DNA from: a phage | Length of the DNA: 64,000 bases | Strand: one strand, 5' to 3' | Sequence record: PZ452595.1 | In this document: positions 22,999-48,513 of the stretch, in pieces | Position numbering within the stretch: position 1 is the first letter of the stretch | Layout of the letters: every line of letters starts with the position of its first letter | Program-made: the position numbers and the translations under genes | The notes under the pieces: model-generated | What the model was told of the DNA's origin: nothing | What the model saw: the letters and a program-made list of their open reading frames with translations, nothing else | Databases searched by the model: none

Positions 22999-23002
22999 CA
23001 AT

Positions 23003-23020
23003 GGGGGCCTTTCGGTCCCC
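23003..23020. terminator. Bidirectional terminator hairpin after gene 54
   Basis: GGGGGCC-TTTC-GGTCCCC stem-loop followed by a T-run, between convergent genes. Confidence 0.6.
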
Positions 23021-23026
23021 ATATTT

Positions 23027-23317
23027 TTATTTACGGAATGAAATGAAAGCAGAAACTGAAGCAACTAAACTGTCTTCAATATAAACTTCAATTTTTACAG
23101 GAGCTTCTGACTCAAATTTACCTGTTACTACACCCTGAAAAATACTTTCAGTCTGTTCTGGCTTTGAAAAATTTTCAGAAGGAAAAATTCCGAACTTTTT
23201 ATCTGTTCCAAAAATTTTAATAAATTCATCGTAAACTGCTTCATTAAAAGCATTATCAGCAGGAATAACGCCTTCAACTACAAGTTCTTGACCTAAAAAG
23301 CGCAAAGAAGATTTCAT
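23027..23317 (-). CDS. Hypothetical protein downstream of alt
   Basis: 96 aa ORF preceded by the conserved early promoter/SD cassette. Confidence 0.6.
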   Translation of the reverse strand: MKSSLRFLGQELVVEGVIPADNAFNEAVYDEFIKIFGTDKKFGIFPSENFSKPEQTESIFQGVVTGKFESEAPVKIEVYIEDSLVASVSAFISFRK

Positions 23318-23324
23318 TTTGTGT

Positions 23325-23378
23325 TCCTCATGTTATGTCAGTAAGACTACTATAACACAACACGAGGGACTTGTAAAC
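23325..23378 (-). promoter_or_regulatory. Early promoter plus 5' UTR cassette, copy 1
   Basis: On the - strand: GTTTAC, 18-bp spacer, TGn-TATAGT, then GAGGA SD before the ATG; 54-bp near-identical copy at 39187..39240. Confidence 0.5.
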
Positions 23379-25435
23379 TACATTTTGAACTTTTTAGACA
23401 TTCCGTTGATGTTAACCAAAGAAGCCAAGATTTGAGAAACTTCGTTTTCCTCTTCTTTTGATTCTTCTACAAGGAATTGATTAAATCCAGCCATTGGACG
23501 AACTTCACCAGTTTCCATTAGATGGTCGCCATCATATACTGATTCTTCTAATTGTTCAGAAGGAGGAACGATTGTACCTTCGATTAGATACTTGTTATAA
23601 GCAGTTTCTTTCATAAAGTACGTACTTACTTTATTAATCTTCAGTAAAATTCCACGAGGTAGAATAACTTCAGCTTCTGATGGAAATCCTGATAAATGAC
23701 CTGGAACGATAACTTTGATTCGCTCAGCTCCTTTAATTACCATACCCACGCTAGTTTCAGCATCTTCATTAGCATATGTAGAATGACTACCCATATGCAT
23801 CAAATCTTCTGCATCAACAGAACCTTCTCCTTCGCCAGAAAATACCGCACCGGAATCATCTAAGGCCATATAGTTTTTACCATGCTCACCGAAGATATTT
23901 GGTTTAAGCGATGTGGATACGAAGTTCTTGAAATAGAACATTTTATTTTCAATATTATGACGTAAAGTTTTAAAGGTAACTTCTTGTCCACGATAAAGAG
24001 TAGTTCCTGGAGGAAGAACTGAACCTTTAGCGAATGCAGAATCCAACGTCTCGATGTGCTTAATAGCTCGTTCCATATATTCTTCACGGGTAGAATCTGG
24101 TTTACCCAAAAGGAACGAGTTCATTTCAACATATGAATCTGCACAATAATCTTCAATTACATCAGATTCAGCTTGAGTTAATCCTTTTGGAGTTACTTCG
24201 GTGCTTGCGTATTCATATGCCTGAGCAGCAGATTCATTAATCAATTTATAAATGCCATTCATGACAAATTGAATAATAGCTGTCTTTTCATCTGGCGTAG
24301 CTTTAGAACCTTTAACCAAATCATTGATAATTTTCTTAATAACATCAAAGCTATTAGAAATATTAATATCAGCAAGATCGCTTAAAATTTTATCAGTTTT
24401 ATAATCAAAGAATTCTTTATTCTTTAAATATTCTTGAGAACCTTGATATGTTATATCGCTCTGCAACTTGATAGATGGATCACGTAAACGCGCATGGGCT
24501 AATGCAATATGATTTCGGAAACTTTCTAGTTCATAATCGCTAGATTTAAAACGAGAAGCACTTCTCATACCACCGATAGCTCCTTTGCTGAAGTTTGAAC
24601 CAATCTGAATAACGCCAGAGTTCATTGGTCCTTCTGCTTTATATACCGGAACTTTAGATTCAAACTCTTGATATTTCTTAGCAGCGAAGCTATCACCCTG
24701 AAGTGAAGCATCGACAGTAGAATATTGAGCTTGTGCTGCTAATCGACGACTAATTTTAGTTTTTTGAATAACAGCTTGATCCGTGCGCTTATCATTTTCT
24801 AAAGCAATAGAAGCAGCAACAGCAACAGCTTTAGGAACAGCATTACCTGTTTTAACATCTACATAAACATCACCGACCTTTGATTCAACTTTTGTGAATA
24901 ACTCAGTTGAAATAGGAGGTACACCTGGAATGTCTTCTAAATTGGCATTTTTACGGTAAACCATAATATATGCGTACTTTTTATCATAGTCCCAGATTTC
25001 CTTTAAAAGAACATATCGACCTGCTCCTTTAGTACGTACTAAACGGTCAGCAATAACTTGCATTTGACGAGCTGCGCCATTTGTTTTACTCTTTAGTACG
25101 CGGAATAAGCATGCGTCAATTTTATACTGCTTCATTGTTTGAAGAGCAGTATCAAAAACAGCATTAATGACGCCAATTGGATTTCCACCCAAGTTTCTAA
25201 GCTTAACCAGCGATAATTTCTCGTTGACGCCTATCATTACGATATGCATCATTTTATCGCCTGGCTTAACGTTTTTATTTGTATCACCGCCAGAGGTGTA
25301 TGTACAAAATCTAAATCCAGGAAGCACACTTTCTTCGCCGGCTTGAATAGCAAAAATTTGTGGTATTTTATGCTTAGGATTTAAGTTAACAACCGGCGCC
25401 GAAGCGCCGTCAAATAATTCTGTAATAAGTTCCAT
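23378..25435 (-). CDS. alt: Alt-family ADP-ribosyltransferase, paralog 1
   Basis: 685 aa (T4 Alt is about 682 aa); C-terminal region carries ART-type R, STS and ExE motifs (YRGQ, FVSTSL, EAEVILPRG). Confidence 0.85.
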   Translation of the reverse strand: MELITELFDGASAPVVNLNPKHKIPQIFAIQAGEESVLPGFRFCTYTSGGDTNKNVKPGDKMMHIVMIGVNEKLSLVKLRNLGGNPIGVINAVFDTALQTMKQYKIDACLFRVLKSKTNGAARQMQVIADRLVRTKGAGRYVLLKEIWDYDKKYAYIMVYRKNANLEDIPGVPPISTELFTKVESKVGDVYVDVKTGNAVPKAVAVAASIALENDKRTDQAVIQKTKISRRLAAQAQYSTVDASLQGDSFAAKKYQEFESKVPVYKAEGPMNSGVIQIGSNFSKGAIGGMRSASRFKSSDYELESFRNHIALAHARLRDPSIKLQSDITYQGSQEYLKNKEFFDYKTDKILSDLADINISNSFDVIKKIINDLVKGSKATPDEKTAIIQFVMNGIYKLINESAAQAYEYASTEVTPKGLTQAESDVIEDYCADSYVEMNSFLLGKPDSTREEYMERAIKHIETLDSAFAKGSVLPPGTTLYRGQEVTFKTLRHNIENKMFYFKNFVSTSLKPNIFGEHGKNYMALDDSGAVFSGEGEGSVDAEDLMHMGSHSTYANEDAETSVGMVIKGAERIKVIVPGHLSGFPSEAEVILPRGILLKINKVSTYFMKETAYNKYLIEGTIVPPSEQLEESVYDGDHLMETGEVRPMAGFNQFLVEESKEEENEVSQILASLVNINGMSKKFKM

Positions 25436-25438
25436 GAT

Positions 25439-27535
25439 TTATCCTTGAACGAACTTGTAAGGCATGTTTGTAATATCTATGCAAGACGCAATAATTCCAA
25501 GAGATGATTCTACTTTCTGTTTAACATTTGATGAAACAAATGATGCAAAGTCAACTCTGTCTTCTATTTCAATATCACCTGTCATTGTAACTACTTCGCC
25601 GGTTTCCATTAGACGGTCACCGTCATAAATTACCGATTCGGTGAGTTCTTCCGTGGTCATAACTTCAGCTTGAATGAGTTTTGTATTATTAGATGTTGTT
25701 CCGTCATTATTAGAAGCATCGGTTATTTTATTAACTTTGACCATCAATCCGCGCGGTAGAATAACTTCAGCTTCTGTTGCTATTCCGAGACTTCCTGGAT
25801 ATACAACATTAACTTTATGTGCGCCGTCAATTGCCCATCCTATTTGAACTTTAACGTATTCAGGATTTTCTTTATACGCTCTTATTTCGTTTGGATTAAT
25901 AGTTATTCCTTCTTCATTTTTATCAACTGTTAATTCATTGCGAGCTTCTGGTTCTAAAAGACCAATACCAGCATGTGTAATTCCAAAACGTCCAAAAATG
26001 ATAGGAGTTAAAGAAGTAGATACAAAATTTCTGAAATAGAACACTTTATTTTTAACTAGCGCTTCGTATATAGGAGCAGTCATACTTTGAGCACGATAAA
26101 CTGTAATGCCTTCCGGTATACGGTCACCATTTTCAAAAGCTGAATCTAAATTATTTATAGCAGATTCAATTTCTTTTTCACTCATTACATCATATCGTTC
26201 TGGATTGTAACGACCTAAAAGAAGATTATTAATATCTGTATATCCTGAGCCACAATATTCTCTAATGCCGCGCTTTTGTGATGGAGTATATTTAGAACCA
26301 TCACGGGCAATAGTAATATCAATCATTGGGCCTGCACCAATTCCAGAAAAACTATAAATCATTCGTTTGAGGAATTTAGTTTTTGCCGCATTCCAGGCAT
26401 TTTTAGTTATTTCTCCCCAGACTTCATCTGACTGCCCTTTACGAGTTTTATTATGTTTATCAAGCCAATTATCTTTGTATTCTTCAAAGAATTTATTAAC
26501 AGCTGCTGCGTATTTCTCTAAACATTTTATTGAAGTAGTTGGTTCATTTTTGATTGCGTTAAAAATTACATCTTTAATTTTTTCTGAAACTTCATCAACC
26601 TCACTTTTTGAAAAGAATTTATAGTCATAGTGAAGTTCATTCGCAGTTCCTTCGGCAATAATTTTTGCTGCCTTAGTTTTAGAAGCTAATGAATTAATTC
26701 CAAGCTTCATTTCTTCTGCTTCGGGAATTAAAGGAGCGGTAGCAGGTTTATTGAAATTAGCTGCGGTAGATTCATACTTCTGGAATAATTCACTTTCAAA
26801 TCTAGAAGACTCTAACGATTGACTTTGTGCAATTGCTCTACGGGAAATTTTAACTTTAACGATTACAGCTTGGTCAGAACGTTTATCGTTTTCTTGTGCA
26901 ATAGATGCTGCAATTGCCTCATTTTTAGTTACTTGAGCCCCAGTATCTTTATTGATATAAACATCACCGACCTTCGATTCAACTTTAGTAAAGAGCTCGG
27001 TACTAATTTCCGGAACTCCTGGAATGTCTTCTAGTGATACATTTTTGCGATGTATAAGAATATATGCATACTTTTTATCATAATCCCAGAGTTCCTTAAG
27101 AAGGACGTATCTGCCACCTGAACGACTACGGATAAGTCTATCAGCAATAACTTGAATTTGTCGAGCTTGACCAGCGGTTTTAGACTTAAGAATACGAAGC
27201 ATACAGGCATCAATTTTATACTGACGCATTGTTTGCATCGCAACAGTAAAAACTGAATTGATATAATTAATTGGGCTTGGACCAAGACCTTTTAATTTAG
27301 CAATTGAACCTTTAGCAGTTAATGTAAAAGGAACAATATGCATCATTTTATCGCCCATTTTTAAATCGCGATTAGTATCACCTCCAGATGTATAGGTACA
27401 TAAACGAAAGCCTGGTTGTTCAATTGCATCATCAACGTGAACTGAAAAAATTTGCGGTATTTTCTTCTTTGGATTTAAGTTTGTAATCGGAAGAGTAGTA
27501 TCTTCGTCAAATAATTCTGTAATGAGTTCCATCAT
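25439..27535 (-). CDS. Alt-family ADP-ribosyltransferase, paralog 2
   Basis: 698 aa; N-terminal 230 aa roughly 60-65% identical to paralog 1 by eye; same R, STS and ExE motifs (YRAQ, FVSTSL, EAEVILPRG). Confidence 0.85.
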   Translation of the reverse strand: MMELITELFDEDTTLPITNLNPKKKIPQIFSVHVDDAIEQPGFRLCTYTSGGDTNRDLKMGDKMMHIVPFTLTAKGSIAKLKGLGPSPINYINSVFTVAMQTMRQYKIDACMLRILKSKTAGQARQIQVIADRLIRSRSGGRYVLLKELWDYDKKYAYILIHRKNVSLEDIPGVPEISTELFTKVESKVGDVYINKDTGAQVTKNEAIAASIAQENDKRSDQAVIVKVKISRRAIAQSQSLESSRFESELFQKYESTAANFNKPATAPLIPEAEEMKLGINSLASKTKAAKIIAEGTANELHYDYKFFSKSEVDEVSEKIKDVIFNAIKNEPTTSIKCLEKYAAAVNKFFEEYKDNWLDKHNKTRKGQSDEVWGEITKNAWNAAKTKFLKRMIYSFSGIGAGPMIDITIARDGSKYTPSQKRGIREYCGSGYTDINNLLLGRYNPERYDVMSEKEIESAINNLDSAFENGDRIPEGITVYRAQSMTAPIYEALVKNKVFYFRNFVSTSLTPIIFGRFGITHAGIGLLEPEARNELTVDKNEEGITINPNEIRAYKENPEYVKVQIGWAIDGAHKVNVVYPGSLGIATEAEVILPRGLMVKVNKITDASNNDGTTSNNTKLIQAEVMTTEELTESVIYDGDRLMETGEVVTMTGDIEIEDRVDFASFVSSNVKQKVESSLGIIASCIDITNMPYKFVQG

Positions 27536-32304: not shown

Positions 32305-32334
32305 ATACTATCACAAAGGAACCGTACTGTAAAC
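32305..32334 (-). promoter_or_regulatory. Putative sigma70-type early promoter
   Basis: On the - strand: GTTTAC (plus 32329..32334), 18-bp spacer, TGA-TAGTAT (plus 32305..32310); same architecture as the duplicated cassette. Confidence 0.4.
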
Positions 32335-32363
32335 AACTTTGTGCAATCTTTGGAAAATAAAAA

Positions 32364-32383
32364 AGGACTCCCGAAGGAGTCCT
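32364..32383 (-). terminator. Strong Rho-independent terminator (AGGACUCC-UUCG-GGAGUCCU then U-run on the - strand)
   Basis: Perfect 8-bp GC-rich stem, tetraloop and T-tract just after the stop at 32388. Confidence 0.75.
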
Positions 32384-38335: not shown

Positions 38336-38685
38336 TTAGAAAGGTCCTGGATGTCTTCTGCGAACTTGTTGAAGGAGTTGTTAATTTGTTTTTCAACCAA
38401 TCCTGGCTTATGAGCCACCACATCCGCCTTCTTTGCGTCTTTGCGCAGTTTTTCATTTTCACGCTCAATAGCAGCAATTGCCTCACGATTTTTATTATTC
38501 ATCGCATCAATATAATTATACTGAATTCGCAAATTATTTAATGCTAAAGCGTTTTCATTGGCTGTTTTTGTAATTTCAGTAACTGATGTTTCTAATCTTT
38601 CTACCTTATTTTTTAAAATAATAGATGTTCCGCCAAATGCTATTACAAGTAATAGCAATCCAGCTGTAAAATTACTTACATGCAT
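38332..38685 (-). CDS. Putative single-pass membrane protein with coiled-coil
   Basis: 117 aa; hydrophobic N-terminal helix (GLLLLVIAFGGTSIIL) then charged coiled-coil-like region. Confidence 0.55.
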   Translation of the reverse strand: MHVSNFTAGLLLLVIAFGGTSIILKNKVERLETSVTEITKTANENALALNNLRIQYNYIDAMNNKNREAIAAIERENEKLRKDAKKADVVAHKPGLVEKQINNSFNKFAEDIQDLSK

Positions 38686-39182
38686 AAAGTTTTAATAACC
38701 TCTATAATATCGTCTTGAGAAAGACCGTTAATTAAAATATGATGTTCAGCTGGAGATTTAGAAATTTTAAAGCATGCCTCAACATCTTCTGCCATATCCG
38801 ATGCACTACGATTTGGATTACTAATACCAAGGCGGTGTTTTCCCGTCAAAGGATTAACGATGATATAGCATTTGCAGCTATTGATATGAACATTGGGTTG
38901 AGTCTGATTAATGAACACTTCACAATCATACTTAGCGAGTTGATTTTCTAAAAAGACTTTCATCTCTTCAACCGCATCAGGAAGCATATCACGGGCTTGC
39001 TCAAGACGACGATTTCGATATTCTTTAATGGTCGTTTTCCGCTTGACTTGTTTAGCTAAATCTTTCTTAAGATCAGTGATATATCCAACTCGACGATTTC
39101 CTTTGAATACAGAAATCCCATCTGTAGTATCACCGTATGCTTCAACGACCATTTCAGTAGTAATAAGCTGCAAATCCATCAT
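38676..39182 (-). CDS. alc: Alc, inhibitor of host transcription
   Basis: About 167 aa, same length and position as T4 Alc; preceded by the early promoter cassette. Confidence 0.85.
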   Translation of the reverse strand: MMDLQLITTEMVVEAYGDTTDGISVFKGNRRVGYITDLKKDLAKQVKRKTTIKEYRNRRLEQARDMLPDAVEEMKVFLENQLAKYDCEVFINQTQPNVHINSCKCYIIVNPLTGKHRLGISNPNRSASDMAEDVEACFKISKSPAEHHILINGLSQDDIIEVIKTLCM

Positions 39183-39186
39183 AAAG

Positions 39187-39240
39187 TCCTCATGTTATGT
39201 TAGTAAGACTACTATAACACAACACGAGGGACTTGTAAAC
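39187..39240 (-). promoter_or_regulatory. Early promoter plus 5' UTR cassette, copy 2
   Basis: Near-identical 54-bp copy (1 mismatch) of 23325..23378, ending in GAGGA SD before the alc ATG. Confidence 0.5.
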
Positions 39241-39243
39241 AGC

Positions 39244-40831
<1,588 letters not shown>

Positions 40832-40858: not shown

Positions 40859-42037
40859 TTAAAAGTATTTTTTAAAACTCATCATAACTTTATCATCAAC
40901 ATCATTATCAATCTGTGCAACAAGGTAAGATGACAGTTCTACTTCTTGTGGCGCGGATTGAACATTATCAGAATTAAGATATTCACGAATCCAAGGATAC
41001 GGATGTTTAACCGGAGCATCGGTAATTGGGCATGGAAGACCACACTGTTTCATACGAGATACAGTTAAGTAATCAATAAAGCTCCACATGCTATTTGTAT
41101 TTAATCCAGGAACATCGCCGTCTTTAAATAAATGAACTGCCCAATCTTTTTCTTGGCGGTTAACTTCCATGAAAATATCAACTGCTTCTTGTTCACACTC
41201 TTGAGCAATTTTAACCCATTCATCGCCATCAGTGCCAAGTTGAAGTTGACGAATAATATATTGAGTGCCTTTAAGGTGAAGCTGCTCATCACGTGCAATG
41301 AACTTCATAATCTTGGCATTACCTTCCATGATTTCCATGTTTTTATGGAAGTTAAAGGTACATGCGAAAGATACATAAAAACGAATAGCTTCCAATGCGT
41401 TGATTACATGCAAACAGAGGTAAAGAGATTTCATTAGCTCACGCTTCCAATATGTCTCATGCTCAATAGCATCTTCAATAACGTCTTCGTCTGCATTAAT
41501 TTCTTTTTGGTATTCGATATCAGCTTTAGCGTTTTCCCAATAACGAGTTTTAATCAGAACATCATCATAATAACGTCCAATGGATTCAGCACGTTTCATA
41601 ATAGCTTCATCTAATACAATTTCATCAAATACCTTCGATGGATCAGTATAAAGATTTCGCATGATATGTGTATATGAACGGCTGTGAATAGTTTCACTAA
41701 AAGTCCACGTAGCAACCCATGTATCAAGGCTTGGGTCTGAAATTAATGACATAAGTACAGCAGACGGCGCACGACCCTGAATGCTATCCAAAAGTGATTG
41801 ATACTTCAGATTATTAGTAAAAATATTTTGCTGATACTGAGGAAGCTTATTAAACTGTGCAGCATCCATCATCAAGTTTACTTCTTCAGGACGCCAGAAA
41901 AATGATAATTGCTTTTCGGTTAAATCTTCAAAAACTTTATGACGTTGAATATCATAACGCGCAATACCAAGACCTGAACCAAAAAACATAGGTTCTTTTA
42001 AAACATCAACTGGATTTGTATTAAAAACTGTGCTCAT
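40859..42037 (-). CDS. nrdB: Ribonucleotide reductase small subunit, uninterrupted
   Basis: 392 aa continuous ORF with the diiron/tyrosyl-radical family sequence; no intron-sized interruption. Confidence 0.93.
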   Translation of the reverse strand: MSTVFNTNPVDVLKEPMFFGSGLGIARYDIQRHKVFEDLTEKQLSFFWRPEEVNLMMDAAQFNKLPQYQQNIFTNNLKYQSLLDSIQGRAPSAVLMSLISDPSLDTWVATWTFSETIHSRSYTHIMRNLYTDPSKVFDEIVLDEAIMKRAESIGRYYDDVLIKTRYWENAKADIEYQKEINADEDVIEDAIEHETYWKRELMKSLYLCLHVINALEAIRFYVSFACTFNFHKNMEIMEGNAKIMKFIARDEQLHLKGTQYIIRQLQLGTDGDEWVKIAQECEQEAVDIFMEVNRQEKDWAVHLFKDGDVPGLNTNSMWSFIDYLTVSRMKQCGLPCPITDAPVKHPYPWIREYLNSDNVQSAPQEVELSSYLVAQIDNDVDDKVMMSFKKYF

Positions 42038-47406: not shown

Positions 47407-47466
47407 TTTATTCTCCTCAGTAGTTGATAGGGTAATAGTATCACACTACTACCCTGTTGTAAACAA

Positions 47467-48391: not shown

Positions 48392-48494
48392 ATTATTTTC
48401 CTCTTTAATTATCAGCAGTATTGCCGATAGTTTTATAGTACCATGGAAGGACAAGGATGTAAACAGTTTTGCGAAAAATTTTTAAAATAAAAAA

Positions 48495-48513
48495 GGGGAC
48501 CCTAGAGGTCCCC
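48495..48513 (-). terminator. Gene 32 Rho-independent terminator
   Basis: GGGGACC-loop-GGTCCCC followed by a T-run on the - strand, 20 nt after the gene 32 stop. Confidence 0.75.

Follow-up and report, generated by a model that had tools for sequence, protein, structure and literature searches.

The window analysed here is the whole 64,000-nt stretch of phage DNA in record PZ452595.1. By sequence the phage is a Tequatrovirus (T4/RB32-like) nearest to RB32-type phages, to which both of the loci considered below are ~98% identical. Each locus carries one copy of a 54-nt cassette set between the end of one gene and the start of the next, and all of these features lie on the minus strand:

23378..25435, minus strand: second alt paralog, 685 aa (alt.-2 in RB32), upstream of copy A
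23325..23378, minus strand: cassette copy A, 54 nt, between the stop codon of the second alt paralog and alt.-3
23325..23329, minus strand: Shine-Dalgarno (SD) sequence GAGGA of copy A, 7 nt before the alt.-3 ATG
23027..23317, minus strand: alt.-3, 96 aa, Pfam DUF5498, downstream of copy A
39244..40368, minus strand: rnlA (RNA ligase 1), 374 aa, upstream of copy B
39187..39240, minus strand: cassette copy B, 54 nt, between rnlA and alc
39187..39191, minus strand: SD sequence GAGGA of copy B, 7 nt before the T4-annotated alc ATG
38676..39179, minus strand: alc, 167 aa from the T4-annotated start, downstream of copy B

The last base of the TAG stop codon of the second alt paralog is also the first base of copy A, and the TAA stop codon of rnlA ends 3 nt before copy B; adjoining the copies in this way, each of these genes is a putative source of read-through RNA. 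The alc product matches Pfam ALC (E = 2.4e-92), and its ORF can alternatively open at 39182, at an extra upstream ATG that follows the GAGGA of copy B by 4 nt.

Read on the minus strand, window positions 23378-23325 are GTTTACAAGTCCCTCGTGTTGTGTTATAGTAGTCTTACTGACATAACATGAGGA, and positions 39240-39187 differ from this in having A for G at cassette position 40, leaving 53 of 54 bases identical. The first-pass annotation had reported this recurrence with its single mismatch, and a search allowing up to three mismatches bears it out, finding no site in the window other than copies A and B and no match in any of 100 shuffles. They form the only near-perfect long-range repeat of the window, with a spacing of 15,862 bp. 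The shared identity reaches from the G of GTTTAC (5′) to GAGGA (3′), beyond which the flanks are unrelated. Nine early-type GTTTAC cassettes occur on the minus strand of the window; when these are compared over 54 positions in the same register, every pair other than A/B is identical at only 15-37, so that promoter consensus cannot explain the identity of A and B, just as the annotation had argued.

The elements of the putative promoters, again all on the minus strand, are as follows:

23372..23377, minus strand: copy A -35 hexamer TTTACA (within GTTTACA), 10/12 consensus matches, 17-nt spacer
23349..23357, minus strand: copy A extended -10, TGt-TATAGT, with TG before the second hexamer
23342, minus strand: copy A predicted transcription start (an A, 7 nt after the -10), from sigma-70 geometry
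39234..39239, minus strand: copy B -35 hexamer TTTACA, from the promoter scan
39211..39219, minus strand: copy B extended -10, TGt-TATAGT, from the promoter scan
39204, minus strand: copy B predicted transcription start, from sigma-70 geometry

The elements named in the first-pass annotation (GTTTAC, 18 nt, TATAGT, TG before the -10 and a GAGGA SD) are all present in both copies. Its spacing follows from taking GTTTAC as the -35; with TTTACA as the -35 there are 17 nt to TATAGT, and both copies then match the sigma-70 consensus at 10 of 12 positions and keep the TG extension. The predicted start falls at cassette position 37, just 3′ of the loop of the hairpin described below. The 25-30 nt upstream of the cassettes lie in coding sequence and are 64-76% AT, the whole window being 63.8%. 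The promoter elements and their placement support reading both copies as sigma-70 early promoter/leader units placed directly after an upstream stop codon. T4 early promoters, built of UP, -35, TGn and -10 elements, have the GTTTAC -35 and TGn extended -10 in common with the cassettes and likewise stand directly upstream of early genes, as alc and alt.-3 are by their expression (Hinton 2010, PMC2988021). The class consensus accounts for no more than the 15-37 positions that other cassette pairs of the window share, as given above; the A/B pair owes its agreement to common descent.

Expression data from T4 fit this reading. In T4 omics both alc and alt.-3 are early as RNA and as protein, and alt, alt.-1 and alt.-2, directly upstream of alt.-3, are middle RNAs (PMC9697503, supplement). 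T4 middle promoters lie upstream of alc (PnrdB and PI-TevIII) and of alt.-3 (P30 and P30.2) (PMC2988021), which makes read-through RNA plausible at both loci. A terminator scan found no terminator-like site between the upstream genes and the cassettes, and none at either cassette. A literature search turned up no genome-wide mapping of T4 start sites and no earlier account of a hairpin at alc or alt.-3.

The first-pass annotation suggested a portable unit as one account of the 54 bp, a view that we retain, but it missed the inverted repeat. On folding, the whole cassette is one long inverted repeat, which in read-through RNA is predicted to form a hairpin of ~20 bp, with the promoter spacer and -10 as its left arm and the leader with the SD as its right arm:

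23323..23370, minus strand: copy A hairpin, -23.0 kcal/mol, z = -4.4, 4/5 SD bases paired
39184..39234, minus strand: copy B hairpin, -24.4 kcal/mol, z = -6.1, 5/5 SD bases paired

Pairing of the SD to this extent appears in both the minimum-energy and the centroid structures. The helix of copy B runs 3 bp past the repeat (AAG/CUU) and that of copy A does not. The leader RNA that would begin at the predicted start is by contrast unstructured, at 0 (copy A) or -0.8 kcal/mol (copy B). A hairpin that joins the spacer to the SD would explain why the unit extends from the -35 to the SD. Scanned in full against Rfam at gathering thresholds, the window matched no family.

Among Tequatrovirus variants the hairpin is always kept, at -17 to -26 kcal/mol and with the SD paired. 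Two changes, G16A and G40A, convert a G.U to an A-U pair and are each found at both loci, and in one alt.-3 variant three changes to the left arm make the helix with that variant's own flank perfect; T19C, C12A and G29A break stem pairs in some variants. In this genus the sense RNA, with three G.U pairs, is 6-8 kcal/mol more stable than the antisense. Across genera the antisense folds as well as the sense (means -21.0 and -19.8 kcal/mol), most of the arm pairing is Watson-Crick, and in only 5 of 18 cases is the sense strand the more stable. The sense RNA is thus clearly favoured in Tequatrovirus only, and since both strands fold alike across genera, folding does not settle which strand or molecule matters.

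A search with the 54-mer extended the count of copies, which the first-pass annotation had proposed to look for, from the two in the window to 999 places, spread over 500 records of T4-like coliphage relatives; this comes to essentially two in each genome, and a third copy was sought without success. One site is before alt.-3 and one before alc, and T4 itself has both. The number of differences between the two copies of one genome is 0 in an RB32-like contig, 1 in the window phage and in T4T, 4 in contig 2974787500, 5 in KAW1E185 and 6 (of 54) in Killian. Variants are locus-specific and common to orthologues: alt.-3 shows TATAATAAT, and alc shows TACAGT or TAGACTT. Between phages, identity is 92.6-94.4% for orthologous cassettes and 95.7-96.7% for the DNA that flanks them.

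These figures do not bear out the suggestion of the first-pass annotation that the repeat reflects recent recombination. Near identity through a recent exchange, or through gene conversion still going on between the two promoters, could draw on the G/A polymorphism at position 40, which is found at alt.-3 in T4T and at alc in the window, and on the presence of G16A at both loci; each of these recurrent changes turns a G.U pair into an A-U pair, which the helix tolerates, and both are therefore accounted for by parallel mutation. We consider a recent event very improbable, given a cassette carried by all 500 Tequatrovirus records, copies that differ at 4-6 positions within single genomes of several phages, and variants that mostly follow locus and orthology. 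The copies have diverged independently, which means that the event was not recent and that they are not being homogenised. Concerted evolution between the copies was considered as a candidate and rejected, the variants being locus-specific.

Other genera give the exchange a direction. Dhakavirus, Gaprivervirus, Mosigvirus, Gelderlandvirus and Karamvirus have an early cassette in this position before alt.-3, of a different type that leaves the SD free and has a small covarying hairpin inside the spacer, with the loop AAGGAA or TGGAA. The design found in copies A and B sits at alc in most genera. Because the alt.-3 cassette is of a different type in five other genera, and because the helix is 3 bp longer at alc, the ancestor of Tequatrovirus probably exchanged its alt.-3 cassette for a copy of the alc one. 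The cassette would accordingly be native to the alc locus, and the one that it displaced older and differently built. The limits of the exchange may have been set by motifs that such cassettes have in common (5′ GTTTACA and 3′ AACATGAGGA), after which the copies would have evolved separately at about the rate of the flanking DNA. In Mosigvirus alc too carries a cassette of the alt.-3-like type, which points to exchanges both ways within the subfamily.

We examined conservation of the pairing at alc, where an IMG/VR scan with a 30-mer had recovered only 6 loci, in upstream regions gathered from 34 T4-like contigs by protein-guided retrieval of loci. The spacer pairs with the SD region in 25 of the 34 cassettes, by arms of differing sequence (for example TCTCCATTTGGTT/AACCAAATGGAGA, ATCCTCATTTTGTTG/CAACAAAATGAGGAT, CCTCTCATTTT/AAAATGAGAGG and CCTCGTTTGTT/AACAAACGAGG), and SD pairing is absent from the other 9. 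In a swap test on 18 lineages, cognate arms gave a mean of -15.3 kcal/mol and non-cognate arms -8.4, and the observed cognate mean was reached by 0 of 20,000 permutations. A second measure, the pair count in an unfitted MAFFT alignment, used a structure that we specified and 17 sequences hand-picked for folding as hairpins, unlike the swap test, whose lineages were not picked by hairpin folding; here 74.9% of cells pair, against 64.9 +/- 2.0% when shuffled (0/500). In the same alignment both partners vary in 10 of 13 pairs, and every slid control scored lower. RNAalifold on MAFFT alignments of the alc cassettes returned no consensus structure, probably because the registers of the arms differ by 1-3 nt between lineages. 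By these comparisons the spacer/SD pairing at alc covaries across many T4-like genera.

Cassettes of this general kind have been described in T4-type phages as promoter-early stem-loops, or PeSLs, which are held to be recombination-prone mobile regulatory cassettes and whose stem-loop is taken to terminate or attenuate transcription (Arbiol et al. 2010, PMC2839356; Comeau et al. 2014, PMC4122927). Both copies in the window have the PeSL layout, in which an early, sigma-70-like promoter follows an upstream stop codon, a stable stem-loop overlaps the -10, and an SD and start codon lie on the 3′ side. They also resemble PeSLs in a promoter like the TTTACW-N17-TAYWAT of the PST/T4 pair and in belonging to a genome with several related cassettes, whose types differ between loci and genera as if exchanged; PeSLs, which also include a somewhat AT-rich stretch, are swapped from locus to locus through recombination inside the cassette. 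The portable promoter-leader module put forward in the first-pass annotation fits the PeSL concept (PMC2839356, PMC4122927). Comparison across genera shows that cassette types have moved from one locus to another. There are differences too. The A/B stem is long (~20 bp) and has the SD itself for its 3′ arm, a matter on which the PeSL papers are silent, making no mention of translation (PMC2839356, PMC4122927). Furthermore, ~16 kb of a conserved region, essential genes included, separate copies A and B; neither a mini-circle nor an indel joins the two, and they do not bracket ORFans of a hyperplastic region. On sequence and layout, these are two early promoter cassettes of PeSL type, present throughout the genus and probably derived one from the other by an old promoter replacement.

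The second likeness is to the T4 genes e, soc, 49 and I-TevI, where long transcripts initiated upstream contain both arms of a hairpin and bury the SD, and transcripts from a promoter inside the 5′ arm are translatable; for e and I-TevI the hairpin has been proven to affect translation (Uzan and Miller 2010, PMC3014915). Folded in silico, a long RNA across copy A or B would likewise hold both arms and a paired SD. In the known cases the internal promoter is late (TATAAATA) and translation is delayed, whereas in copies A and B it is an early sigma-70 promoter that is predicted to confine translation to the early period. With the late promoter missing, the resemblance is one of mechanism and not of strict membership.

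We propose for alc and alt.-3 a translational gating akin to that of e, soc, 49 and I-TevI. Both copies would be host sigma-70 promoters embedded in an inverted repeat of the PeSL type. Host RNA polymerase, to go by the consensus, would start ~7 nt after TATAGT and make an unstructured leader of ~27 nt in which GAGGA is open, and this short leader would allow alc and alt.-3 to be translated immediately after infection. RNA arriving from rnlA or from the alt paralog would include the left arm with its anti-SD-like UCCCUC, and in such read-through RNA, as folding and covariation suggest, the ~20-bp hairpin would bury the SD. Translation would thereby be tied to transcripts from the embedded early promoter. 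As a single explanation, the combination of PeSL-type early cassettes, gating of the SD by promoter of origin and replacement of the alt.-3 cassette by that of alc seems to us reasonably probable.

A wider claim can be framed from the same model, and we hold it tentatively, at somewhat short of even confidence: that T4-type early-promoter stem-loops in general are promoter-of-origin translation gates and not mainly terminators, conserved at alc and moved whole to alt.-3. The spacer would then encode an anti-SD arm, only RNA born at its own promoter would be translatable, and Alc-like proteins would be confined to the immediate-early window although later transcripts cross the gene. Promoter and gate would be one unit, and hence movable whole to another gene, as at alt.-3.

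The stem-loop may instead serve as a transcription terminator or attenuator that insulates alc and alt.-3 from upstream transcription, with no part in translation control. The hairpins are stable (-23.0 and -24.4 kcal/mol), and Arbiol et al. report experimental proof of attenuator/terminator activity for an RB49 stem-loop cloned into a reporter (PMC2839356). Neither stem in the window is followed by a U-tract, however, copy A continuing with AACACAAAAUG and copy B with CUUUAUGAUG; the terminator scan reports nothing at either cassette, and insulation leaves unexplained why the SD is the right arm in 25 of 34 lineages. We regard this role as unlikely. Much the same standing goes to translational coupling, in which a ribosome ending at the upstream stop codon would melt the base of the helix, where the anti-SD part lies, and read-through RNA would yield Alc or Alt.-3 only while the upstream gene is translated. 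The geometry suits it, since the distance from the upstream stop to the -35 is 0-5 nt in nearly all genera, with TAGTTTAC a frequent form, and the left arm begins 7-13 nt after the stop, within reach of a terminating ribosome. Such packing may only reflect compact intergenic space, and T4 RnlA is classed as a late protein and Alc as an early one, which tight coupling would not predict.

A role as DNA, whether as a recombination hot spot or as a protein-binding palindrome, or as an RNase III site or 3′ stabiliser of the upstream mRNA, is less probable still. It would sit well with strands that fold about equally across genera and with arms that are mostly Watson-Crick. A stem of ~20 bp is near the size of an RNase III substrate. 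The authors of the PeSL work also speculated on a recombination protein (PMC2839356). The three G.U pairs that favour the Tequatrovirus sense RNA by 6-8 kcal/mol speak against a function of this sort, which moreover gives no reason for an arm to coincide with the SD. The last reading to be weighed concerns a tiny upstream AUG over the SD, noted in the first-pass annotation and indeed present in both copies, where it opens these frames:

23314..23331, minus strand: copy A mini-ORF, ATG AGG AAC ACA AAA TGA, overlapping the SD
39179..39193, minus strand: copy B mini-ORF, ATG AGG ACT TTA TGA, overlapping the SD

That these are translated and regulate the main gene is hardly credible. Both copies do place the ATG within ATGAGGA and overlap the TGA stop with the main ATG, and alt.-3 of JS98 and PhAPEC2 is arranged alike; the overlap nevertheless follows from the SD-ATG spacing and the A after the ATG, and the frame does not stop at the main ATG in HX01 or at JS98 alc. 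The AUG is probably incidental, a by-product of the arm sequence, since it has no SD of its own before it and is missing in several genera, which have ACGGAG, ACGAGG or ACGAGAGG at that position.

If the proposed gating is true, the classic T4 principle of a start inside a hairpin reaches early genes, and the PeSL stem-loop acquires a second role beside attenuation. Gating would also explain why cassettes move as complete -35-to-SD units, and would give a simple reason for limiting Alc synthesis to the first minutes of infection. Alc aborts transcription on cytosine-containing DNA. For annotation, the pair would be a clean example of promoter replacement from a distant locus that became fixed throughout a phage genus. 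It does not overturn present views of T4 regulation, and the kind of cassette is already known.

Gene content beside the cassettes varies among related phages, which have one alt, two, or a decayed second alt, and in Gaprivervirus a truncated duplicate of alc; no breakpoint of gene order was mapped to a cassette. No genome joins the alc and alt.-3 cassette loci, a joining that would delete essential genes, 30 and 31 among them. The window has two tandem full-length alt paralogs on the minus strand, at 23378-25435 (685 aa) and 25439-27535 (698 aa). T4 retains the second only as the decayed remnants alt.-1 and alt.-2; a single alt is found in KAW1E185, PhAPEC2, VR25, NP4 and AS6, and two in JS98.

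In Gaprivervirus VR25 a 77-aa ORF between rnlA and alc (L013:18760-18993) is an N-terminal Alc fragment, matching Pfam ALC residues 3-62 (E = 3e-9) and phrog_17715, and the same fragment ORF is present in L029, L030 and L057. The fragment is fronted by a promoter-like cassette with a GC-rich stem-loop before it, and the full alc by an SD only. As read from these sequences, the Gaprivervirus fragment is a partial tandem duplication at the cassette site. A cassette in another setting was seen in Mosigvirus HX01 (L010:2487-2543) and p000v (L011:2505-2562), before a 66-aa ORF (phrog_2183) between denB and ndd. Its 3′ half is 87% identical to the Tequatrovirus alt.-3 copy, including AACACAAAATG after the SD, its 5′ half is different, and its hairpin excludes the SD; it may be a chimera in a third gene context.

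Most early-type GTTTAC cassettes of the window have an inverted repeat that straddles the -10, at -12 to -16 kcal/mol. For those at 47464, 35919, 32334 and 31942, and also 48464 (all minus strand), z runs from -1.9 to -4.0. The right arm is again the SD in cassette 32334 (TCCTTTGT/ACAAAGGA) and partly so in 48464, and it ends short of the SD in 47464, 35919 and 31942. A weaker repeat, 79% over 39 nt, links 32328-32366 with 48458-48496 and comprises a terminator tail, an A/T-rich stretch and the GTTTACA of cassettes 32334 and 48464, both of which have a PeSL layout with the stem-loop upstream of the promoter.

In a second type of cassette the -35/-10 spacer contains the whole of a small hairpin, with a conserved purine-rich loop (AAGGAA, AGGA or TGGAA) and covarying stems (CCACA/TGTGG, ACACAT/ATGTGT, GCAC/GTGC, ATCC/GGAT and CACC/GGTG). 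It is found at alt.-3 in all five outgroup genera (L009:20018-20078, L012:32825-32892, L013:33845-33880, L017 and L018) and at alc in Mosigvirus and two other lineages (L042, L056 and L058). Overlap of the stop codon with the -35 as TAGTTTAC occurs at alt.-3 in the window (23378-23380), in L009 and in L012, and at alc in many genera, as seen in many IMG/VR loci.

Elsewhere in the window, nrdB (40859-42037, minus strand) is a single uninterrupted ORF of 392 aa, which marks this as a phage without the nrdB intron; in T4T nrdB is annotated as two joined pieces (an intron with I-TevIII). Between the convergent ends of gene 54 and alt.-3 lies a GC-rich stem-loop (23001-23022, plus strand), ATGGGGGCC TTTC GGTCCCCAT and then a T-run, where related records annotate a terminator on both strands.
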